Virus record (IMG/VR): IMGVR_UViG_3300025012_000245
Direction: 5' to 3' (one strand)
DNA from: a virus
DNA length: 29,168 bases
The position numbers and the translations under genes are program-made. The notes beneath the pieces were generated by a model that saw nothing but the letters and a program-made list of their open reading frames with translations, did no database searches and was not told where the DNA came from. The number at the start of each line of letters is the position of its first letter. The first letter of the stretch is position 1. Below are positions 1 through 20,013 of the stretch, one piece after another.

Positions 1-1
1 A

Positions 2-1015
2 TACACTCAAATTATTCTTCAAGATTTAAGGGGTGGTCTTAGTGAAAAAACTATTAATAGTGCTTTAGGATATGAATTTATCTACATACACAAATTAGAA
101 AAAGGTGAAGTTGCTGAACCAAGACATTTAAAACTACTTAAAGGAAAAGAATTTGGTATTTATAAAAAGGTTGATGGATATCGAGCAGAAATTGAAGTTG
201 GAAATGGTAAAGTAAAAATTATGTCTTCTGGTGGAGAGTTATTTAAAGAATTAGTAGACATAGAAACTGTTTTGTTGAGTTCAAATTTGCCTCATGGAGT
301 ATTTGCTTGCGAGTTGCTTGCGATTGATTCTGAGGGTACTATGACAAGAATGGAGGTGTTTAATAAGACTGGTTCACTATTAAGAAGAGATGGTATTAAA
401 CAAGGAATTGAGGTTAACGTATTTAATTTCATTCCAGATAATGGTTTTTATGAAGGAAAACACTCTACAACTTGCAGAGAAAGAAAAGCATTGGTAAAAG
501 AATTAGTTGATAAGATTAATTCTCCTTTAATTAAAAATGTTGATCCATTTTATATTGGTAGAGATTTAACTCAAATTGATTATTGGTTTGAAAAAATGAT
601 TGAGAATGGTGATGAGGGGTGTATGGTTCTTCCAATGGATCAAAAATATGTTGGGAAGAAGTCCTATCAACAAATGCTAAAAATTAAAACTGAAAATGAG
701 GCAGATTTACGCATAGTTGGTTTTGAGCGCGGAGAGAAAGGTAAGGCATTTGAAAATACTTTAGGTAAAATGCTTGTTAATTACAAAGGAAATACAATTA
801 ATGTTATGGCAGGATATAAGATTAAATATGATTCTGCAAAGTATGATGATAGGTTAGTAAGAGATTATATTTGGAATCATCAAGACGAATTGTTGGGCAA
901 GATTGTGAAAGTGCGTTACATGGATGAAACTACAAATGATAGTGGTGGAATTGATTTAAGAATGTGTAGATTGATTGAATATAGGGATGATAAAACAGAA
1001 GAGTCTTATAATTAA
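2..1015 (+). CDS. ATP-dependent DNA ligase (5'-truncated by window edge)
   Basis: Open frame from pos 2 with no stop before 1015. Motif I KxDGxR ('KKVDGYR', ~nt 164-184), motif III 'FACELLAID', motif IV 'EGCMVLP', motif V 'LKIK', motif VI 'RLIEYRDDK' near the C-terminus. The start codon lies upstream of the window. Confidence 0.85.
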   Translation, partial: YTQIILQDLRGGLSEKTINSALGYEFIYIHKLEKGEVAEPRHLKLLKGKEFGIYKKVDGYRAEIEVGNGKVKIMSSGGELFKELVDIETVLLSSNLPHGVFACELLAIDSEGTMTRMEVFNKTGSLLRRDGIKQGIEVNVFNFIPDNGFYEGKHSTTCRERKALVKELVDKINSPLIKNVDPFYIGRDLTQIDYWFEKMIENGDEGCMVLPMDQKYVGKKSYQQMLKIKTENEADLRIVGFERGEKGKAFENTLGKMLVNYKGNTINVMAGYKIKYDSAKYDDRLVRDYIWNHQDELLGKIVKVRYMDETTNDSGGIDLRMCRLIEYRDDKTEESYN

Positions 1016-1034
1016 TTAAGAAAGGAGTGATTAT

Positions 1035-1490
1035 GTGATTAAAATAGTTGATGGAGATATATTACAAGCAAAAGAAGACATAAGATGCCATCAGACAAAT
1101 GCACTTGGTGTAATGGGTGGAGGAATAGCAAAACAAATTAAAGAAAAATATCCCGAAGTCTATAAAGCATATAAAGAATTATGTTTGTTACATAATTCAA
1201 AAGATTTACTGGGAGCAGTTCAATATGTTGAATGTCATGATGGACATATTATCGCTAATTTATTTGGACAAGAAGGGTTTGGTCGGAACAAACAATATAC
1301 TGATTATGATGCTCTAAGAAATGCATTAAAGATTGTTTACAAAAGAGTTAAACAATATCAAGAATCTATTGCAATCCCAGTAAATCTAGGTTGTGGATTA
1401 GCAGGAGGTAATTGGGATATAGTTTATAAGATTATTGAAGAAGTTTTTGATGATTATGATGTAACTTTGTATAGATGGGAGGTGAAATAA
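1035..1490 (+). CDS. macrodomain protein (ADP-ribose binding/hydrolase)
   Basis: GTG start 7 nt after 'AAAGGAG'. 'GDIL...HQTNALGVMGGGIAKQIKEKYP' and 'IAIPVNLGCGLAGGNWDIV' match the macrodomain Gly-rich phosphate-binding loops. Stop overlaps the TTG start of the PARP-like gene. Confidence 0.8.
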   Translation: MIKIVDGDILQAKEDIRCHQTNALGVMGGGIAKQIKEKYPEVYKAYKELCLLHNSKDLLGAVQYVECHDGHIIANLFGQEGFGRNKQYTDYDALRNALKIVYKRVKQYQESIAIPVNLGCGLAGGNWDIVYKIIEEVFDDYDVTLYRWEVK

Positions 1491-2713
1491 TTGGATACTA
1501 AATATAAATATCTTTATTTAGTAAAAGTTGAACCAGATGCAAATAATAATAAATTTTACAAACTAGTACAAACGGATGATAATAATTGGACTGCTGAATA
1601 TGGCCGCATTGGAGCAGGAGGTTTCAAACTGCATACTACAATATGAGTCACTGGGATAAAAAAGTAAGAGAAAAAGAGAAGAAAGGGTATTGTGATAATA
1701 CCAGATTAGTCGCAGAGGTTGTTGTTAAAGAAAAGAAGGACAAAGAATACTTAGACATTAAAAATCAAGTAATTGCATCTATCGTATCAAGACTTCAATC
1801 TATGGCGAGACAAGCCATTGCAGACAACTATACAATTTCTTCTAATAAAGTTACCCAAGTAATGATTGATGAAGCACAATTTACTTTAAATAATTTGATG
1901 AGTGCTGATACAATTGAATTATTCAATAAAGTTTTGATAGAATTGTTTAAAATTATCCCACGAAAAATGAAAAAGGTTAAAGATAATCTAGCAAAAAAAG
2001 TTGAGGATTTTGGAGAGATTATTCAGAAGGAACAGGATTTACTTGATGTAATGAGAGGTCAGGTGGTTACTGCATCTATAATTGAAAATGAAGAAATAGA
2101 GACAGATGAGCCTGTTAGAAATGAAACCATTCTTGATGTAATGGGTTTGCAATTTGAAGAAATTACAGACGAAGAGAAGAAAATGATTAAGAAAGAATTA
2201 GGAGAGATTAGTGATAGATTCTATCAAGCTTGGAAAGTTATTAATGTTAGAACTCAAGAAAAATTTGATAAATTTATTACTAATGAAAAAATCAAAGATA
2301 ATAGATTATTATTTCATGGATCTCGATCAGAAAACTTTTGGAGTATTATTAATTCAGGATTGGTGTTAAGACCAACTGGAGTGGTAATAAATGGAAAGAT
2401 GTTTGGGAATGGTTGCTATTTCTCGCCAACCGCCAGAAAGTCACTTGGATATACCTCGATAAGTGGGTCTCGATGGGTAAGTGGAAATGCAAATTCTGGG
2501 TTTATGGCATTATTTGATGTTGCTTATGGGAAAACTTATGATGTTCATTCATTTGATAGCAAATACTATAATTTTAATTATTAAGAATTACAAAAGGTTT
2601 GTAAAGGTGCGAATAGTCTTCACGCACATAAAGGCAAAATGTTGTACAACGACGAGATAATTGTTTATAAAGAAGATCAGATGACTATAAAATACTTAAT
2701 AGAACTTAAATAA
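1491..2713 (+). pseudogene. PARP-like ADP-ribosyltransferase (WGR + helical + ART domains), disrupted by a -1 frame break near 1641-1646 and an in-frame TAA at 2582-2584
   Basis: Frame 0 (1491-1646) encodes 'KFYKLVQTDDNNWTAEYGRIGAGGFKLHTTI*', a WGR motif. Frame 2 (1643-2584) continues the WGR end ('EKEKKGY') and helical domain, then 'LLFHGSRSENFWSIINSGLVLRP...GKMFGNGCYFSP' (PARP H-G-S and Y signature). After the TAA the same frame continues 'GANSLHAHKGKMLYNDEIIVYKEDQMTIKYLIELK*' (catalytic Glu 'YNDEIIVY') to the stop at 2711-2713. Confidence 0.8.
1643..2584 (+). CDS. PARP-like protein, largest intact reading frame (helical domain plus first two-thirds of ART domain; lacks catalytic Glu)
   Basis: ORF as it stands. 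ATG overlaps the upstream TGA (ATGA). Contains the H-G-S/Y-F PARP motifs but terminates before the conserved 'YNEYIVY'-type glutamate. Confidence 0.55.
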   Translation: MSHWDKKVREKEKKGYCDNTRLVAEVVVKEKKDKEYLDIKNQVIASIVSRLQSMARQAIADNYTISSNKVTQVMIDEAQFTLNNLMSADTIELFNKVLIELFKIIPRKMKKVKDNLAKKVEDFGEIIQKEQDLLDVMRGQVVTASIIENEEIETDEPVRNETILDVMGLQFEEITDEEKKMIKKELGEISDRFYQAWKVINVRTQEKFDKFITNEKIKDNRLLFHGSRSENFWSIINSGLVLRPTGVVINGKMFGNGCYFSPTARKSLGYTSISGSRWVSGNANSGFMALFDVAYGKTYDVHSFDSKYYNFNY

Positions 2714-2734
2714 AATATAAAGGGGATTATAAAT

Positions 2735-3034
2735 ATGAGTAATAAAAATGCTGAAATTAAAACAATTAAATATTATGGGACTAAACAATATTTTGTAGAA
2801 ACAGACGAAAGAACAGGAGAAGTTATTAAAGATAGTTCTTTTAGAATGAAACCAAAGAGTGAACGTGTTATTCATAATGATATGGCAACTATTGTTATCC
2901 TTGAAGATGGTTCAAAGGGTGTTTCAAAATGTATGCCAGAAGATGAATACAATAAGATAAAAGGAGTTAAGATTGCTTATCTAAGAGCAAAAATTAAATC
3001 TTTACATAAAGAACTTAAAACTTTAACTAAATAA
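2735..3034 (+). CDS. hypothetical protein
   Basis: ATG preceded by 'AAAGGGGA'. 99 aa, no recognisable motif. Confidence 0.6.
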   Translation: MSNKNAEIKTIKYYGTKQYFVETDERTGEVIKDSSFRMKPKSERVIHNDMATIVILEDGSKGVSKCMPEDEYNKIKGVKIAYLRAKIKSLHKELKTLTK

Positions 3035-3173
3035 TTTAACTAATAAAACAATTGAGCGAGGGACTGAAAAATCACTGATCCAGTCACAACAAAAGCCGAA
3101 TCCCAAACGGTGTGATTAATAATAAAACTGGGTAATGCTCAATTTAATTTCTTTAAAGAAAGGAAATAATTAA

Positions 3174-3419
3174 ATGAACTGTACATGTGGTTGCAAACTT
3201 CAATTCACAGATAATAGTCTTAAAACTGAAAATGGGAAGACAGGAGAGGTTAGAGCAGTATATTATTGTGACTCATGTAATATTGCATATGATGGTTACG
3301 AATTAGATTGTGAAGGTAAGTATGTTAAATTGCCAAAGAGATATCTAAAATGGTTTGATAGAAACTATATGAATGGAATTTTGAATAAATATTGTAGAAA
3401 CAAGAGGGTTAATTTATGA
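3174..3419 (+). CDS. small Cys-rich (zinc-ribbon-like) protein
   Basis: RBS 'AAAGGAAA', 'CTCGC...CDSC' Cys pairs. Stop overlaps the next start (ATGA). Confidence 0.6.
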   Translation: MNCTCGCKLQFTDNSLKTENGKTGEVRAVYYCDSCNIAYDGYELDCEGKYVKLPKRYLKWFDRNYMNGILNKYCRNKRVNL

Positions 3420-3886
3420 TATTCAAAGAAGAAAAATGCGACTTGTTTAATTTAGATAATAAATATGCTTTAGCACATTGCATCTCAAATGATTGTGCTA
3501 TGGGAACTACAAAAGACGGAAGAATATTACCATGTGTTGCAACAGAATTTATTAAAAGATTTCCAAAAATGAAAATAATTATTAAAATAAGAAAAGACCC
3601 TAATGGGATTGGTACTTGTTGTTTATATGCAGAGTGCAAAGATGACAAATGGATTAGAATTTTTAATCTTATTACTAAAGAAAAATATTGGCTTAAACCA
3701 ACCTATGATACATTAAAAAGTAGTTTATTAGATTTAAAGAAGCAATGTGAGCATTTAGATATTAAATTTATTGCAATACCTAAGATTGGATCTGGACTTG
3801 ATAGACTTTCTTGGAGTAAAGTTAGAGAAATTATTAAAGAAGTATTTAAAGACACTGATATTGAAATTTTAGTGTGTTATTTATAA
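3416..3886 (+). CDS. TARG1/OARD1-like (DarG-like) macrodomain ADP-ribosyl hydrolase
   Basis: 'CDLFNLDNKYALAHCISNDCAMG', 'LITKEKYWLKPTYDTLKSSL' and 'IAIPKIGSGLDRLSWSKVREIIKEVFKDTDIEILVCYL' closely parallel the TARG1 motifs 'GDLF..SLAHCISEDCRMG', 'KPTYENL' and 'PRIGCGLDRLQWENV..IEEVF..TDIKITVY'. Catalytic Lys (KPTY) and Asp (GLDRL) positions are conserved. Confidence 0.8.
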   Translation: MIFKEEKCDLFNLDNKYALAHCISNDCAMGTTKDGRILPCVATEFIKRFPKMKIIIKIRKDPNGIGTCCLYAECKDDKWIRIFNLITKEKYWLKPTYDTLKSSLLDLKKQCEHLDIKFIAIPKIGSGLDRLSWSKVREIIKEVFKDTDIEILVCYL

Positions 3887-4005
3887 TAAAAACTCTATAA
3901 TTGCGAAGTTCAATTTCTAAAACCCTTGCTACAGTAGTCTTTCAGAGGTTGGACTTTCCCTTAAAATAACTATTTTATATGCTCAATAAGGAAGGAAAAA
4001 TAAAT

Positions 4006-4158
4006 ATGAATAGACTATCATATATTCTACTTATTTTAATATTTTGCATTTTTGTTTCCATAGGATGTATAACTGGTGATATTACAATTGGTTGTTTACT
4101 TATGCTTGGAATGTTATTTTCAGTGATTATAGGTGTTTTAGAATGGGAGGTAAAATAA
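4006..4158 (+). CDS. small hydrophobic membrane peptide (50 aa)
   Basis: 'AGGAAGGAAAAATAAAT-ATG'. Sequence 'MNRLSYILLILIFCIFVSIGCITGDITIGCLLMLGMLFSVIIGVLEWEVK'. Absent from the ORF track only because it is under 60 aa. Confidence 0.45.
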   Translation: MNRLSYILLILIFCIFVSIGCITGDITIGCLLMLGMLFSVIIGVLEWEVK

Positions 4159-4331
4159 TGACAAAAACAGAAATCCTAATTTATGGAGCATTGCTTGAAA
4201 GCGATATGTATACTGATGGATATGGATCAACTGACGAGGATACGGAATTATTAAAAAAAGCATTAAAGAAAATATATGGAGTTGCAGAGGGAGTTTCGGA
4301 AGAGGATTTAAAAAAGCAGAAGAACAAATGA
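4158..4331 (+). CDS. hypothetical protein (57 aa)
   Basis: ATG at 4158 has RBS 'GGGAGG'. The upstream part of track ORF 4092 overlaps the membrane peptide and lacks an RBS. Confidence 0.5.
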   Translation: MTKTEILIYGALLESDMYTDGYGSTDEDTELLKKALKKIYGVAEGVSEEDLKKQKNK

Positions 4332-4405
4332 AAAATGATATGAGAAAATTGGTTATAGAATTTAGAGGTAAAATGGCAGAATATTTAGAAGAGGAGGAAT
4401 AATTA

Positions 4406-4642
4406 ATGAGCCAAGTAGATTATGAAAAATATTATAAGATTAGTAAACAATCTCTTAATCGTGCATGTGATTATCTAGAAGAAAGAATTGGATGCCCAAA
4501 ACAGAATAGAATATTTATGTGTGATATTTCAATTAATGAATGCAGAGAAAACGATGAAACATATGGAGAGGTATGTTGGATTAGATATTTTAGTAAATTA
4601 GCAAAAGAAGATATTGAATATGATGATAACCTGTTGAAATAA
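4406..4642 (+). CDS. hypothetical protein
   Basis: RBS 'GAGGAGGAAT'. 78 aa. Confidence 0.6.
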   Translation: MSQVDYEKYYKISKQSLNRACDYLEERIGCPKQNRIFMCDISINECRENDETYGEVCWIRYFSKLAKEDIEYDDNLLK

Positions 4643-4702
4643 ATATCCCTCGAATGGATTATTTCATCACAATCAAAATTAATAATAAAAGGAGAATATT
4701 AA

Positions 4703-5649
4703 ATGAAAGTAAAATTGTTTAGTCATCTCGATTTAGACGGAATTTCTTGTGGAATTGTAGGTAAATTAGCATTCCCAAATATTGATATTGAATATTGTGA
4801 TTATGATGATATAAATGGTAAAATCATTGATTACATATGTAGCGAGAAATATAGAGACTATGATACAACATTTATTACAGATATTTCAGTAAATACAGAT
4901 GTAGCAAAACTAATCGACAACGCACACACACTCAATCAAACGAATTTGTATTACTAGATCATCATAAAACAGCGTTGTGGTTAAATGATTATAAATGGGC
5001 ATTGGTAGCAGAATATCTAGATGAAGAAAATAATACTAAGCATTGTGGGACAGTAATGTTTTACGAAAATTTGATTAATTTTTATATTCCTAAACCACAT
5101 ACTAGAAATGTATTCTTAGATAATTTTTCTGCTTTAGATTTTGTAGAAATTGTTAGGCAATATGACACCTATGAATGGAAATCAAAATACAATAATGTTT
5201 TACCTAAACAAATAAATGATTTAATGTATATATTAGGGCGAGATACTTTTATTGAAACTGTTTTGGATAAATTAAGCATATTACGAGACTATGAATTAAC
5301 TGAACAAGACTTAAAATTATTAAAACGCAATCAGGAAACAATTGACCATTACATAGAATCAAAAAACAAATCAATTATTGTTAAGGAAATTCAAGGTTAT
5401 CAGGCAGGAGTAGTATTTGCGGAAAAATATGTTTCAGAATTGGGAAATAAGCTATCTGAATTACATCCCGAATTAGATTTTATTGCTATGATAAATCCAT
5501 CACATTCGGTCAGTTATAGGACTGTAAAGAAAGATGTAGATTTGAGTGTTATAGCGTCAATGTTCTGTGGAGGTGGTCATAGGCAAGCTTCAGGAAGTCC
5601 TATTGATGAAGATATGAAAAATAGGATTATTAATTTGGTGTTTAGTTAA
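4703..5649 (+). pseudogene. DHH-DHHA1 phosphoesterase (NrnA/oligoribonuclease-pAp phosphatase-like) with frame break between motifs II and III
   Basis: Frame of 4703: 'SHLDLDGISCGIV' (DHH motif I) and 'FITDIS' (motif II), ending in TAG at 4955. Frame of 4975 runs upstream as '...QSNEFVLLDHHKTALW' (motif III DHH) and ends with the DHHA1 'FCGGGHRQASGSP' motif. The break lies at or near the (CA)4 tract at 4923-4930. Confidence 0.75.
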
Positions 5650-5672
5650 TTTAAACTAAAATAAAAAGGAGA

Positions 5673-6155
5673 ATGAATTTAATGAGCAACAACAAACAAG
5701 AAATATCAATTGATCGTGTTAAGCAAATAACCCAAGAAGAACTACAAAGATATGTAAAAGGCAATTTTTCAGAAGATAATCTTAGGAAAATGATTCAAGG
5801 ACAATTAGATAAGTCTGGTAAAAATATAGTTTTTAAACAATTAGGTTTAAAATACGAATCATGGAATCATACATGGGAAGTTGATGGTTATGGAGAATTA
5901 TCTAATATGGTTAAAAATAGTTCGCATATTAGAGATATTGGAGAAAAAGTAATCCAAGAGATTATTAAACAAGTAACGCCAGAAGATATTCTTACTTCAT
6001 TGAACAAAAATAATATTCAATCATTAAAGAAAGTTTATAAAGAAACTTTAATGGGTTATTTTACACAAGAAGTTAGAAAACTAGCAATACTGCATGGCAC
6101 AGAACAAGCAGAAAAGTTGTTCAAGAAGTATTTATATGAAAGATTGGACGATTAA
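5673..6155 (+). CDS. hypothetical protein
   Basis: RBS 'AAAAGGAGAA'. 160 aa. Confidence 0.6.
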   Translation: MNLMSNNKQEISIDRVKQITQEELQRYVKGNFSEDNLRKMIQGQLDKSGKNIVFKQLGLKYESWNHTWEVDGYGELSNMVKNSSHIRDIGEKVIQEIIKQVTPEDILTSLNKNNIQSLKKVYKETLMGYFTQEVRKLAILHGTEQAEKLFKKYLYERLDD

Positions 6156-6181
6156 ATTAAGTTAGATAAGGAGTGTTAATT

Positions 6182-6352
6182 ATGTATATGGAATTTAAAG
6201 AAAAGACTACCGAAAAGAAATTTGGTGTATCATTGATTGACGAAGATGGATTTGTTTCTCAGTTATTTTACACAAGAGATGTTTGGGAAAATATAATTAA
6301 AACAATAGAGAAAGAAATTTCAGAATATGATATATCTAGAATATTTAATTAA
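6182..6352 (+). CDS. hypothetical small protein (56 aa)
   Basis: 'TAAGGAGTG' then ATG. Under the track length cutoff. Confidence 0.5.
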   Translation: MYMEFKEKTTEKKFGVSLIDEDGFVSQLFYTRDVWENIIKTIEKEISEYDISRIFN

Positions 6353-7093: not shown

Positions 7094-7480
7094 ATGAATC
7101 TTGAAGATATGGATTTATCAGTAAGGTCTTACAACTGCCTCAAAAGAGCAGGAATAGATACTCTTGAAGATATAATTCAAAAAACAGAAGATGACATGAT
7201 TAAAATTCGCAATCTTGGCAGAAAGAATTTTGAAGAAGTAAGATGGAAGTTGAAAGAGTTTGGACTGACATTTAAATATGAAATCTCTTACAAATTAACA
7301 GGAAGAGAAAAGTTTAACTTAGTATTTGCAAAAATGACAAATGAAAATTTAGCTGATTTAATTCTTGGAGGAAGTTGCCCTAGCCAATTTAATCTTTTTG
7401 ATAAAAAAGAAAATGGATGTCCAGTTTTCTTTTGCACAAGTTGTTGGGAGAAAGCATTAGAAATGGAATACGAACAATGA
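7094..7480 (+). CDS. RNA polymerase alpha-subunit C-terminal-domain (alpha-CTD)-like protein
   Basis: '[43 protein letters not shown]' matches the RpoA alpha-CTD helix-hairpin-helix ('LSVRS.NCLK...I..L......ELL...N.G.KSL.EI'). The C-terminal part is Cys-rich. Confidence 0.65.
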
Positions 7481-17346: not shown

Positions 17347-17583
17347 ATGATACTAAAATCATTTGAAGAAATGCGCGATGATGAAACAATTTGTGATTAT
17401 TGTCATCAAACAGATTATGGAGAACATAAATCTTGTGTTACACCTTCTGGATACTCATCTTGTGAAGGAATGTGGTGTGAAGAAGCTTACGAGGCATATT
17501 TAGATGATAATAATGCATCTAAAATATTAATAAAATATCAAAATAATGTAAAATTATTAAATAAGGAGGAATTAATAAAATGA
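17347..17583 (+). CDS. Cys/His-rich small protein
   Basis: RBS 'AAGGGGAAGGAGAAAATT'. Confidence 0.55.
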   Translation: MILKSFEEMRDDETICDYCHQTDYGEHKSCVTPSGYSSCEGMWCEEAYEAYLDDNNASKILIKYQNNVKLLNKEELIK

Positions 17584-18188
17584 GTACAGCACTTAAATTT
17601 GAATTTGATTTTGAAGAAGTTTTTGAGGGAATTAAGTTAGGGGTAATTAAAGAAATGTCAGAAATGACTTTTGATGATATTACCACCAGTGCGATTAATC
17701 AGATTAAAAATGAAATGAAAAATAAAATATCTCTTACATATAAAGACGAATATGAAATCAGAGACGAAATTAAAGATGAAATCAAAGAAAAAGTATATCA
17801 AAAATTAATTGCAGAAATTAAAGATGAATATAAAAAGAAGTATGAAGAAGCATTTAGTAAAGATGTGACAAATGCACTTAACCTTGCCGAAGAAGATGTT
17901 ATAGAAGAGATAAAATCTGAAACGATTGATAGGTTATATAGTAATTTGTATTCAAATATTCAAAGTCAAGTAAAATCTAAGATTAATAATTCTATATCTG
18001 AAATTATTAATGCAATCACAGGGAATAGTATTAAAGTTGAAAATACTAAAAATACGATTTCTAAAGAAGAATATAGTGAACTTCTGCACAGAGATGAAAC
18101 ATTAACTGCATTGGAAAACGGTGGAGTAGATAACTGGGAATGGTATGGAGAATCTTTAAGTAATTATTTTAAAAACAAAAATAAATAA
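17580..18188 (+). CDS. charged coiled-coil protein
   Basis: ATGA overlap. K/E-rich heptad-like sequence. C-terminal 'LENGGVDNWEWYGESL'. Confidence 0.6.
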   Translation: MSTALKFEFDFEEVFEGIKLGVIKEMSEMTFDDITTSAINQIKNEMKNKISLTYKDEYEIRDEIKDEIKEKVYQKLIAEIKDEYKKKYEEAFSKDVTNALNLAEEDVIEEIKSETIDRLYSNLYSNIQSQVKSKINNSISEIINAITGNSIKVENTKNTISKEEYSELLHRDETLTALENGGVDNWEWYGESLSNYFKNKNK

Positions 18189-18977: not shown

Positions 18978-19112
18978 ATGTTTGTAATATTTATTCTTGC
19001 TATAGTAGTATTACTATTATTCTTAGCAATACCACTATACTCAAAAATAGGCCAGAAAATTGAACAAGTAGAAAATATAATTAAAGAGGAGATTAAAAAT
19101 AATGAGAAATAA
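18978..19112 (+). CDS. small single-TM membrane peptide (44 aa)
   Basis: 'AAAGGTGGTGATGATATAT-ATG'. Overlaps the start of the SPFH gene. Confidence 0.4.
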   Translation: MFVIFILAIVVLLLFLAIPLYSKIGQKIEQVENIIKEEIKNNEK

Positions 19113-20013
19113 TTTTGAAATCGGAGATATTTTAACAATGAATAAATTCACTAAAGGTTTAATTGCAGTTGGAGTATCAGCAGTTGTCTTACTTGCAGGT
19201 TTTGGAATGTCAACTACAAAGATTAATCCAGGACATGCAGGAATTGTATATAATGTATCTGGTGGTCTAGAAGATATTACATTGAGTCAAGGATGGCACA
19301 TAGTAGCACCTTGGAAAAGTATTAGAGAATATCCTATTAGTACAGAAACAGTATGGTTAACACAGGCTAAAACAGAGGGTTCACCCAATGATGATTCCTA
19401 TAATACTTCTACTATGGAAGGAAAACCTGTAAACGTAGACGCTTATTTTACATATCATGTGAATGTAGAAAAATTACCTGCAATATTTAATAGATTTAAA
19501 GGCGCAGATATCGAATCTATCCAATCAGGATATTTAAAGCAACAGGTGAAAACAGCTTCTCAATCAGTTACATCTAGTTATAGTGTTCTTGATTTGTACG
19601 GCAATAAGCGTTCAGAGATTCAAAATAAAATCCATGATATATTAATCAAAGAATTAACTCCATTTGGATTAGAAGTCGAAACATTTAGTTTTGGAGAAAT
19701 TCGTCCTGATGCAGATACTATGAAAGCAATTCAGGCAAAAGTTGATGCACAGCAAAAACTTCAACAAATGCAAACAGAATTAGAGCAATCAAAAGTTACA
19801 GCAGATAAAGCGAGAGTTGATGCGAAAGGGATAGCGGATGCAGCAGTAATTAGAGCAACAGGCGAAGCAGAAGCAAATCAAAAATTACAAGCATCGTTAA
19901 CTCCTGAATTGATTCAAAAATTATGGATTGATAAGTGGGATGGTCAACAATCTCAAGTTGTTGGTAGTGGAAGTCAAATGATTAATATTCCGGCTATTGG
20001 TGGGTCTAAGTAA
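19102..20013 (+). CDS. SPFH/band-7 (stomatin/prohibitin/HflK-C-like) membrane protein
   Basis: Strong RBS 'AGAGGAG'. N-terminal TM 'LIAVGVSAVVLLAGFG', then 'PGHAGIVYNVSGG...GWHIVAPW', typical of an SPFH domain, then a coiled-coil tail. Confidence 0.75.
   Translation: MRNNFEIGDILTMNKFTKGLIAVGVSAVVLLAGFGMSTTKINPGHAGIVYNVSGGLEDITLSQGWHIVAPWKSIREYPISTETVWLTQAKTEGSPNDDSYNTSTMEGKPVNVDAYFTYHVNVEKLPAIFNRFKGADIESIQSGYLKQQVKTASQSVTSSYSVLDLYGNKRSEIQNKIHDILIKELTPFGLEVETFSFGEIRPDADTMKAIQAKVDAQQKLQQMQTELEQSKVTADKARVDAKGIADAAVIRATGEAEANQKLQASLTPELIQKLWIDKWDGQQSQVVGSGSQMINIPAIGGSK

Follow-up and report, generated by a model that had tools for sequence, protein, structure and literature searches.

The closest described relatives of the proteins analysed here are human TARG1/OARD1 (C6orf130; PDB 4J5S/4J5R), the DarG antitoxin and SCO6735 of Streptomyces coelicolor (PDB 5E3B), all of them active on T-ADPr and U-ADPr (PMC9411070, PMC13036486). 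SCO6735 removes the thymine-ADPr that DarT makes on DNA and, less efficiently, Glu-ADPr from protein, and its Gln85 is essential for thymine-ADPr hydrolysis; enzymes of both the SCO6735 and the TARG1 type undo DarT adducts and rescue cells from the toxin (PMC9411070). AdfM, a stand-alone phage macrodomain, counters and can defeat DarTG2 (PMC13309987). On the writer side, the WGR-PARP of Herpetosiphon (HaPARP) is activated by DNA and produces PAR (PMC8120803, PMC4245714), and phage PARPs have no known function (PMC7824862, PMC4245714).

The window, a stretch of 29,168 nucleotides of groundwater phage DNA, is an early-gene region rich in small ORFs, in which a T7 gp5.9-like RecBCD-inhibitor domain is also encoded. 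Its positions 2-3886 carry six genes, all on the plus strand and located where the original prediction had placed them, in the order ATP-dependent DNA ligase, macrodomain (macro1), WGR-PARP, two small ORFs and TARG1-like macrodomain (macro2):

2..1015, plus strand: ATP-dependent DNA ligase (PF01068, E = 3e-10; phrog_114, E = 2e-49; NCBIfam ATP-dependent ligase models also matched)
1035..1490, plus strand: macro1, a stand-alone macrodomain of 151 aa (PF01661, E = 4e-7; phrog_335, E = 3e-48)
1491..2713, plus strand: WGR-PARP pseudogene (PF05406; PF00644, E = 2e-19), defined by reconstruction and three-frame translation
1622..1624, plus strand: lesion 1 of the PARP, a 1-nt deletion in a T run of 3, from a nucleotide alignment with nine relatives
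2582..2584, plus strand: lesion 2 of the PARP, an in-frame TAA (GAA>TAA) where relatives have GAA, GAG or GAT (Glu/Asp)
2735..3034, plus strand: orf99, 99 aa, kept directly downstream of the PARP in relatives
3174..3419, plus strand: orf81, a Cys-rich ORFan of 81 aa whose stop overlaps the macro2 start (ATGA)
3416..3886, plus strand: macro2, a stand-alone TARG1/OARD1-type macrodomain of 156 aa (best PDB match human TARG1/OARD1, E = 3e-19)

The predicted gene order and identities were thus confirmed by Pfam, phrog and PDB matches. The ADP-ribose erasers, the writer and the ligase all belong to known families, while a conserved ligase-macrodomain-PARP linkage in phages is not described in the surveys consulted. 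The ligase is cut by the window edge, with the C-terminal 337 of its 441 aa inside, and the full-length 441-aa ORF is present in the near-identical contigs L003 and L005; its KxDG motif appears as KKVDG.

The PARP begins with a TTG codon straight after the macro1 stop and has the same layout of WGR domain, helical region and catalytic domain with H-Y-E as HaPARP, CdPARP of C. difficile and gp031 of Cellulophaga phage phi4:1, but unlike these it is a pseudogene. Within the WGR domain, lesion 1 moves the reading from frame 0 to frame 2. The window has GG-TTTCAAAC at 1622-1624, one base less than the GGTTTTCAAAC, or variant of equal length, in each of the nine related loci, five of which show TTTT. 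Lesion 2 costs the protein its last 42 aa, catalytic Glu included; the H-Y-E codons are nevertheless all retained, that of the Glu 3' of the premature stop, and H276, Y310 and E389 are invariant (alignment A5). Since the split ORFs of 51 and 313 aa are identical in the four assembled contigs covering both lesions, and partial contigs from other samples agree with the window over the portion that they cover, the lesions are real; a sequencing artefact was ruled out by their recurrence in independent assemblies. Stop-codon recoding was also rejected because TAA, TAG and TGA each terminate ordinary genes in the window. The PARP is intact in eight of the nine related phages (L013-L017 and L019-L021, 61-86% identity), and the ninth, L018, has an independent nonsense codon (TGG>TGA). 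A DHH phosphoesterase gene in the window is likewise frameshifted.

Judged by its substitutions and alleles, the loss of the PARP is recent, since its dN/dS against relatives (0.10-0.14) falls within the range of intact pairs (0.08-0.15) and the end of contig L006, where the PARP 3' allele is divergent, has GAA at the lesion 2 codon. The stop may be polymorphic. The original prediction had noted that both macrodomain genes are intact and the PARP broken, which is correct (macro1 and macro2 ORFs are whole), and had read this as selection for the eraser function. With so recent a loss, the intact erasers of this window do not demonstrate selection, and what lean there is toward it comes from two related phages that retain a macrodomain with the PARP broken (L018) or absent (L062, with ligase, HNH and a TARG1-type macrodomain but no PARP beside the ligase-linked macrodomain). 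The present eraser-only state might even be transient rather than adaptive.

The gene order of the window was found again in nine related viral contigs and several genome-derived contigs, so the clustering is not due to chance, and ligase-macrodomain-PARP-orf99 is the order conserved in relatives. Among 21 loci with a PARP at least 47% identical to that of the window, 17 have a TARG1-class macrodomain upstream of the PARP, either immediately next to it or at most 1 kb away, and in 13 a DNA ligase is found inside the fetched flank. The macrodomain directly adjoins or overlaps an intact PARP in seven of the nine close relatives (in L013 a homing endonuclease separates the two), and about seven Firmicutes-type loci also have the two genes directly adjacent. 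Loci of the Rifle group have an SCO6735-type macrodomain, and L021, L027-L032 and L034 have one of TARG1 type. Most loci carry an ATP-dependent ligase, but that of L029 is NAD-dependent (LigA). That macrodomain and ligase types are exchanged while the order stays fixed speaks for functional coupling. A PARP and a ligase are also linked in L033, L040 and phage phi4:1, the last with an ATP-dependent ligase one gene from its PARP (31% identical), although outside the close Rifle group the evidence for ligase linkage comes from about five loci. The ligase could also be the phage's general replicative ligase, with its position partly inherited. In the bacterial systems described, PARP is paired with PARG; in the clade of the window its partner is a TARG1-class macrodomain directly upstream.

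macro1 has a GTG start and an AAGGAG ribosome-binding site, and its top PDB matches are BT1257 (2FG1; E = 1e-13), SCO6735 (E = 4.5e-12) and DarG (E = 1e-8). On alignment it is a member of the SCO6735/BT1257 subclass, its nearest solved relatives at about 32% identity, with N22, GGG 28-30, Gln79 and the GCGLAGG loop as key residues (alignment A4). It shares the G-Q motif and GCGLAGG loop with SCO6735, and Gln79, which occupies the DarG-K80/TARG1-K84 position, aligns with the essential SCO6735 Gln85. It differs in having a 'mobile loop' after GQ that is shorter by 2-3 residues and in being a phage gene beside a PARP and a ligase, whereas SCO6735 is a chromosomal DNA-damage-induced gene. Homologues of macro1 occur in 2642 phage records, among them T4 Tk.4 and the macrodomain gene of a phiKZ-species phage (29% identity), compared to 14 records with a PARP; in the cultured phages Geobacillus E3 and Fusobacterium Fnu1, homologues of both macrodomains stand alone, with neither ligase nor PARP nearby.

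macro2 aligns end to end with human TARG1 (36% identity) and retains the catalytic dyad, K88 and D129 corresponding to TARG1 Lys84/Asp125 (alignments A1 and A2), together with the LITK and GxGLDRL motifs. The Lys/Asp pair is conserved in macro2, but macro1 has Gln at the Lys position. Unlike TARG1, this phage protein has an 8-aa insertion in the ADP-ribose-binding (MGAG) loop and Thr32 in place of the near-invariant second Gly, and none of 37 aligned homologues shares the insertion and the Thr. The AF2 model has a pLDDT of 94, with the insertion at about 83, and superposes on TARG1 with Foldseek TM values of 0.80-0.89. Because the remodelled loop could abolish or alter ADP-ribose binding, activity of macro2 should not be assumed. 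The gene sits in a hypervariable slot, is missing from close relatives L013-L020 and has homologues in only 12 phage records. In the same slot, L017 and L020 have small Cys-rich ORFs unrelated to orf81, whose CxCxC...CxxC pattern is zinc-ribbon-like by eye only and whose sole match among 5.8 billion proteins was orf81 itself, with no family match either. The predicted fold of orf99 has a sheet of six strands and, after it, a long helix at the C-terminus.

Such features could be taken to mean that the whole module is decaying, PARP first, with the macrodomains free of selection and their lesions yet to come. The two PARP lesions, the DHH phosphoesterase as a second frameshifted gene and the insertion and lost Gly of macro2 would fit, and after a recent loss intact neighbours carry little information. 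We nevertheless find general decay improbable, as ligase, macro1, orf99, orf81 and macro2 are whole in every contig, the macro2 protein is 100% identical in 10 contigs from several samples and modelled with high confidence through its insertion, and macrodomains persist without a PARP in L062 and thousands of phages.

Substrates other than macromolecules were also considered. The macrodomains might process ADP-ribose-1''-phosphate, O-acetyl-ADP-ribose or ADPr-derived immune signals, for RNA repair, NAD+ economy or signal quenching; PHROG and record annotations read 'phosphatase' or Appr-1-p processing, the ADPr-1''-P phosphatase Poa1p is among the PDB matches, the ThsA Macro domain is a weak fold match, and in comparative surveys phage Macro domains are proposed to break down signals or toxins derived from ADPr (PMC7824862). 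This would, in our view, be a long shot, since the top matches are TARG1, DarG and SCO6735 rather than Poa1p, the conserved neighbours (a DNA-dependent PARP and a DNA ligase) point to macromolecular or DNA substrates, and none of the window ORFs scanned was a gene for RNA repair or NAD salvage.

The original prediction instead described dedicated counter-defence, in which the macrodomains erase ADP-ribose that DarT or another host toxin has added, nicks are mended by the ligase and the PARP is irrelevant. Enzymes of this class do strip DNA of the thymine-ADP-ribose that DarT attaches (PMC9411070), and the assignment to the TARG1/DarG class (TARG1/DarG/SCO6735, ALC1-like) holds for both proteins, but macro1 rather than macro2 is the closer to DarG (PADLOC DarG, E = 1e-22 versus 2e-15). 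DarG profiles match both over the macrodomain, AdfM (phiKZ gp104) is of the same class, and these matches, the rescue by SCO6735-type and TARG1-type enzymes, the defeat of DarTG2 by AdfM, the accessory slot of macro2, the abundance of the macro1 family in PARP-less phages and the survival of the macrodomain where the PARP is broken, nonsense-mutated or absent (window, L018, L062) all favour such a role. Unlike DarG, however, neither protein has the C-terminal DarT-binding domain (NCBIfam models), no darT lies beside either in the window, and a DarG equivalog was rejected for both (NCBIfam scores of 71 and 49 bits, where 250 is required); unlike AdfM and DarG, macro1 has Gln for the catalytic Lys, and the window lacks the nucleus-forming phage context of AdfM. 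The selection argument also fails from the window alone, and in the relatives described above the macrodomain lies directly upstream of a PARP that is intact and under purifying selection, near the ligase, which argues that the cluster was ancestrally a writer/eraser/ligase module. While an AdfM-like anti-DarT role for macro1 or macro2 is plausible by analogy, we consider a dedicated anti-DarT cassette rather unlikely, and the region is, from its gene content and synteny, best read as a writer/eraser/ligase DNA-break module.

We slightly favour, over all else, a conserved phage module, here in degenerate form, made of a ligase, a TARG1-class eraser, a DNA-break-sensing WGR-PARP writer and orf99. 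The identities of the genes, both lesions, the conserved catalytic residues and the synteny are observed, while enzymatic activities, substrates and a connection with defence are inferred. By analogy with WGR-PARPs and TARG1, the ancestral WGR domain would bind where phage DNA is nicked or broken, during replication or under attack, and turn the PARP on, which would ADP-ribosylate itself, nearby proteins and possibly DNA ends; the co-transcribed macrodomain would then remove the ADP-ribose and the ligase close the break. Such a module would work like eukaryotic single-strand-break repair (PARP1/2/3, XRCC1-Lig3, TARG1) in combining a break-sensing WGR-PARP, a TARG1-class terminal ADP-ribose hydrolase and a DNA ligase, here encoded side by side. 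The likeness is one of analogy and not membership, as the phage module has no XRCC1-type scaffold, PARG or histones and action of its three proteins in one pathway is hypothetical.

In this lineage, the 1-nt deletion and the nonsense codon recently inactivated the writer, and a second eraser of true TARG1 type was gained two genes downstream. With no phage writer in the window, macro1 and macro2 would be limited to ADP-ribose added by other enzymes, and the best-documented substrates of the class are base-linked ADP-ribose on DNA or RNA, such as DarT-type thymine adducts, and Glu/Asp-linked ADP-ribose on protein. AdfM-like counter-defence would therefore most likely be the present-day use of these macrodomains.

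The window has a G+C content of 29% and holds nearly all of its ORFs on the plus strand. Contigs identical or near-identical to it derive from groundwater metagenomes of the Rifle aquifer (PRJNA268031, with related assemblies at JGI and ENA), and since its IMG/VR relatives measure 137-180 kb, the window belongs to a large phage; megablast found no near-identical cultured phage and none close at the DNA level. The gene order in the original prediction, with a ligase, a macrodomain, a PARP, two small ORFs and a TARG1-like macrodomain, proved correct:

2-1015, ATP-dependent DNA ligase (ORF of 441 aa in contig L003, which is near-identical to the window)
1035-1490, macro1, a macrodomain
1491-2713, WGR-PARP
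2735-3034, orf99
3174-3419, orf81
3416-3886, macro2, a macrodomain

The adenylation domain of the ligase matches PF01068 over profile positions 15-204, its KxDG motif can be read as KKVDG at about nt 160-175, and the 441-aa ORF is uninterrupted in L003 and in L005, another such contig. The stop codon of orf81, a Cys-rich ORFan, overlaps the start of macro2, which suggests that the two are translationally coupled. An exact 9-mer, ATGCTCAAT, has just two copies in the window (3135-3143 and 3979-3987), one in each of the intergenic regions flanking the orf81-macro2 cassette; at one mismatch its counts were not above the shuffled expectation, and searches for longer similarity or a stable structure found none. 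The surroundings of the cassette held no Rfam family and no tRNA and gave a fold z-score of -1.4, so that an intergenic RNA or motif is not supported, and the promoter and terminator scan was uninformative in the AT-rich DNA of the window. Differences between strains are clustered: L003 carries 40 substitutions against window 1-1000, all within the ligase, and contig L007 carries 5 against window 1189-1308, all within macro1, with none outside these genes in the overlap with window 1-6200. Clustering of this kind, as opposed to an even spread, indicates mosaic recombination between co-existing strains.

The PARP had been predicted to be broken, and it is a true pseudogene with two lesions. It is composed of a WGR domain and a PARP catalytic domain (PF05406 and PF00644), and the codons of the H-Y-E triad are all still in place, with H276, Y310 and E389 invariant in our PARP alignment (A5). 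A 1-nt deletion (1622-1624) and a TAA codon (2582-2584) interrupt the reading frame: the WGR domain opens in frame 0 (1491-1646) and carries on in frame 2, which then hits the in-frame TAA, and the final 42 residues, with the catalytic Glu in NDEIIVY, stand after it in the same frame. Nine related viral loci (L013-L021) have GGTTTTCAAAC or a variant of equal length where the window has GG-TTTCAAAC, and GAA, GAG or GAT where it has TAA, which identifies the first lesion as the loss of one base from a T run and the second as a nonsense G>T substitution. The same split into ORFs of 51 and 313 aa is found in four assembled contigs spanning both lesion sites, and partial contigs from further samples agree with the window over the part of the PARP that they cover; pattern scans of metagenome and viral contigs for an intact allele over the frameshift site found nothing. 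Identical lesions in several independent assemblies rule out a sequencing artefact. Stop-codon recoding was rejected because TAA, TGA and TAG all end ordinary window genes, and programmed frameshifting because there is no slippery heptamer; neither is credible given that the relatives read through the same sequence unshifted.

This loss was late. The dN/dS of the window PARP against its relatives is 0.10-0.14 (0.21 against the most distant, L021) and that between intact pairs is 0.08-0.15, a likeness that implies purifying selection over nearly all of the history of the window PARP. One contig, L006, ends in a divergent PARP 3' allele that has GAA in place of TAA, differs mainly at third codon positions and is joined to an orf99-orf81-macro2 region identical to that of the window. 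This suggests co-existing strains in which a functional PARP and macro2 occur together; alternatively, the contig end may be chimeric. With the PARP lost so late, the intact macrodomains of the window are not evidence of selection for erasing, and the earlier argument to that effect, from intact erasers (the macrodomains) beside a broken PARP, is unsupported by the window.

Two other loci do point that way. In L018 (5523-7191), one of the nine relatives, the PARP has acquired an independent in-frame TGG>TGA at a conserved Trp of the WGR domain, and macro1 has ATA where the window copy starts with GTG; the module may have decayed in L018 too, independently of the window. L062, a 166-kb Rifle phage contig, carries a ligase, an HNH gene, a small ORF and a TARG1-type macrodomain and no PARP. 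In cultured phages the homologues of both macrodomains are solitary, with early genes around them. General decay of the module in the window lineage is an explanation to which we give little credence; in its favor, a DHH/DHHA1 phosphoesterase at window 4703-5649 is frameshifted too. The reading frame of that gene changes from 2 to 1 at or close to the CACACACAC run (about 4923-4932), with its DHH motif (LLDHHK) in the downstream frame, and is one intact ORF in L014 and L020, the window being 2 nt longer in that segment; it is a second recent pseudogene of the window phage.

The order ligase-macro1-PARP-orf99 is kept in eight related viral contigs (L013-L020; PARP 69-86% identical), often broken up by homing endonucleases. 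orf81 and macro2 are present in none of these eight, and the slot from orf99 to the next conserved gene is different in every one of the phages. The more distant L021, like the Firmicutes-associated loci L027-L032 and L034, carries in place of macro1 a TARG1-type macrodomain directly upstream of the PARP, with 25-42% identity to human TARG1. The order is ATP-ligase, macrodomain, PARP in L028; NAD-dependent LigA, macrodomain, PARP in L029; PARP, orf99, ATP-ligase in L033; and PARP, one gene, then ATP-ligase in both L040 and Cellulophaga phage phi4:1. (In the latter, gp030 was ruled out as a hidden macrodomain, with an hhalign probability of 0.2% and no Pfam match.) Among the 21 loci whose PARP is at least 47% identical to that of the window, a TARG1-class macrodomain lies just upstream of the PARP in 17 and a DNA ligase is found in the fetched flank in 13. 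That the partners can be replaced by non-orthologous equivalents at a fixed order argues that ligase, eraser and writer (the PARP) act together. The interpretation of the macrodomains as anti-toxin erasers therefore stands only in part: it agrees with the relatives that keep a macrodomain with the PARP broken or absent, whereas the synteny of the relatives points to a ligase/eraser/writer module. No description of a conserved ligase/macrodomain/WGR-PARP module was found in surveys of ADP-ribosylation and of phages (PMC9503650, PMC7824862, PMC8120803, PMC4245714, PMC5966428), and the module with a TARG1-class macrodomain, together with its repeated writer loss, is undescribed as far as we could find.

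The ligase-macro-PARP-orf99 module of the relatives is heavily invaded by homing-endonuclease-type genes, confirmed by HNH_3 and NUMOD matches in L013 and assigned by sequence only in the others:

L013, 3297-4022 and 4516-5397, homing-endonuclease-type genes
L018, 4630-5406, homing-endonuclease-type gene
L019, 7327-7905, homing-endonuclease-type gene
L020, 3105-5525 and 7241-7840, 806-aa ligase ORF and a homing-endonuclease-type gene
L021, 4579-5295, homing-endonuclease-type gene

The ligase ORF of L020 is 806 aa long and is interrupted just behind the KLDG motif by an insertion resembling an intein. Chromosomal WGR-PARPs of Cytophagales (L037 and L052, from Larkinella and Spirosoma; 3200-6100) are about 36% identical and have pPIWI_RE_Z-domain proteins on both sides, with a WYL-WCX regulator also flanking the PARP in L037, a context quite unlike the phage module that looks like a defence island. 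PARP neighbors in MAG contigs include a T4 endonuclease V-type pyrimidine-dimer glycosylase (L043, 5433-5909) and a Thg1-like tRNA-His guanylyltransferase (L036, 5224-6099).

Among solved structures macro1 is closest to BT1257 (E 1e-13) and SCO6735 (E 4.5e-12); DarG macrodomains and Poa1p come next. Macro1 shares with the BT1257/SCO6735 subclass an identical loop 2 (GCGLAGG) and a Gln instead of the catalytic Lys: Gln79, in NLFGQ, takes the position of DarG Lys80 and TARG1 Lys84 and aligns with NMIGQ of the two solved proteins. After the GQ these have an extended, positively charged mobile loop, which in macro1 is 2-3 residues shorter but keeps R84 and K86. SCO6735, for which Gln85 is essential, removes DarT-made thymine-ADP-ribose from DNA very efficiently and Glu-linked protein ADP-ribose less well, and it rescues cells from DarT (PMC9411070). 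The macro1 family (phrog_335) is very common in phages, with 2642 records including T4 Tk.4 and a phiKZ-species phage.

Macro2 resembles TARG1 over its whole length (phmmer E 3e-19 to 4J5R), and the top Foldseek matches of its predicted AF2 structure (pLDDT 94) are all TARG1, with TM 0.80-0.89; among catalogued phages its homologues are few, with 12 records. The Lys84/Asp125 dyad of TARG1 is present as K88 and D129, which are invariant in alignments of 20 and 38 sequences that include human TARG1. The ADP-ribose-binding loop 1 is MGAG-IA in all other homologues but MGTT-KDGRILPC-VA in macro2, with an 8-residue insertion seen in no other aligned homologue and Thr32 in place of a Gly conserved in at least 90% of them. 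The TARG1/OARD1-like assignment thus holds for the fold and the Lys/Asp dyad and fails for the canonical loop 1, a change that may shift specificity or damage ADP-ribose binding.

Neither protein proved to be a full DarG antitoxin. Macro1 scores better than macro2 on DarG models (PADLOC E 1e-22 for macro1), yet their 70.6 and 48.6 bits on NCBIfam NF048014 are far under the 250-bit equivalog cut-off. DarG joins a macrodomain to a C-terminal DarT-binding domain over 338 model positions, whereas macro1 (151 aa) and macro2 (156 aa) match positions 1-146 only. The PADLOC search covered the five cluster proteins; there is no adjacent darT, and the PARP pseudogene is the sole ADP-ribosyltransferase among the 37 window ORFs scanned with Pfam. 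Geobacillus E3 gp184, a candidate DarT beside a macro1 homologue, is an ORF6N protein and was ruled out.

With the writer dead in the window lineage, any present function of macro1 and macro2 must be on ADP-ribose from other enzymes. AdfM, a phage macrodomain able to defeat DarTG2 (PMC13309987), is of a type whose DarG2-like active site has an Asn and a catalytic Lys78/80; the Asn is kept in macro1 (N22), where Gln stands in for the Lys, and the Lys is kept in macro2, which, like TARG1, has a Ser (Ser24) in the Asn column of the alignment. Both states occur in T-ADPr-active enzymes (PMC9411070). The class to which the two proteins belong hydrolyses base-linked ADP-ribose on DNA and RNA (PMC9411070, PMC13036486); that they process small-molecule ADP-ribose is, in our view, very unlikely. 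The documented activity of the class and the AdfM precedent make a counter-defence use of macro1 and macro2 plausible by analogy. The stronger reading, that the whole region is a dedicated anti-DarT module, draws on the same precedent and runs against the synteny of the relatives; we consider it possible but doubtful. Phage macrodomain counter-defence is already published, and every component of the module comes from a known family. In the same early region, window 17580-18188 encodes a 202-aa protein, likely a counter-defence gene product, whose C terminus matches the T7 gp5.9 RecBCD-inhibitor domain (PF25708, E 2e-16).

The window also encodes an 826-aa homologue of the eukaryotic Major Vault Protein (MVP) at 23101-25581, with an MVP shoulder domain (E 2e-27), vault repeats and a match to MVP in the PDB (E 2e-17 over residues 455-789). 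Within the phage collection, MVP homologues are confined to three huge uncultured phages, and in one of these, LR756500, the gene lies about 6 kb from an intact WGR-PARP; a PARP is also a component of eukaryotic vaults. Viral MVPs have been reported in a 2023 preprint, which makes no mention of PARP (10.1101/2023.11.10.566534). Three further genes were recognized:

7094-7480, phage-encoded copy of the RNA polymerase alpha C-terminal domain (PF03118, E 1e-23)
19102-20013, SPFH/band-7 protein (E 3e-30)
27291-28292, Sak4-like AAA_24 annealing protein

From the observed gene identities, lesions, catalytic residues and synteny, we infer an ancestral mechanism in which the WGR-PARP would sense breaks in phage DNA and ADP-ribosylate protein and/or DNA ends, the upstream macrodomain would reset the mark, and the ligase would seal the break. 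A broader proposal, which we regard as speculative and rather unlikely, is that PARP-dependent break repair of eukaryotes has a minimal and self-contained analogue in large phages of Firmicutes-like hosts. In it the PARP would mark nicks or ends, possibly through ADP-ribosylation of the phage DNA itself, a TARG1-class macrodomain would unmark them and the ligase would seal; the PARP would have been lost repeatedly, and the eraser kept and turned against ADP-ribosylating toxins of the host.

Because its writer is dead, the window is a degenerate copy of the module and is of value mainly as a pointer to the conserved one. Macro1 and macro2 add two candidate stand-alone erasers to the AdfM-type counter-defence proteins, one of them with an unusual substrate-loop insertion. 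For over ten years, PARPs of phages and bacteria have been listed with no known role. In the window and its relatives a PARP is found time and again in a fixed place between a DNA ligase and an eraser of the TARG1 class, the partner families being swappable and the order constant. This conserved order provides a testable hypothesis for the function of phage PARPs, with the intact relatives as a natural set of proteins. If the repair analogue is real, it would be the first function for phage and bacterial PARPs and would connect the TARG1 class with a removal of ADP-ribose from DNA ends or bases that is coupled to ligation.
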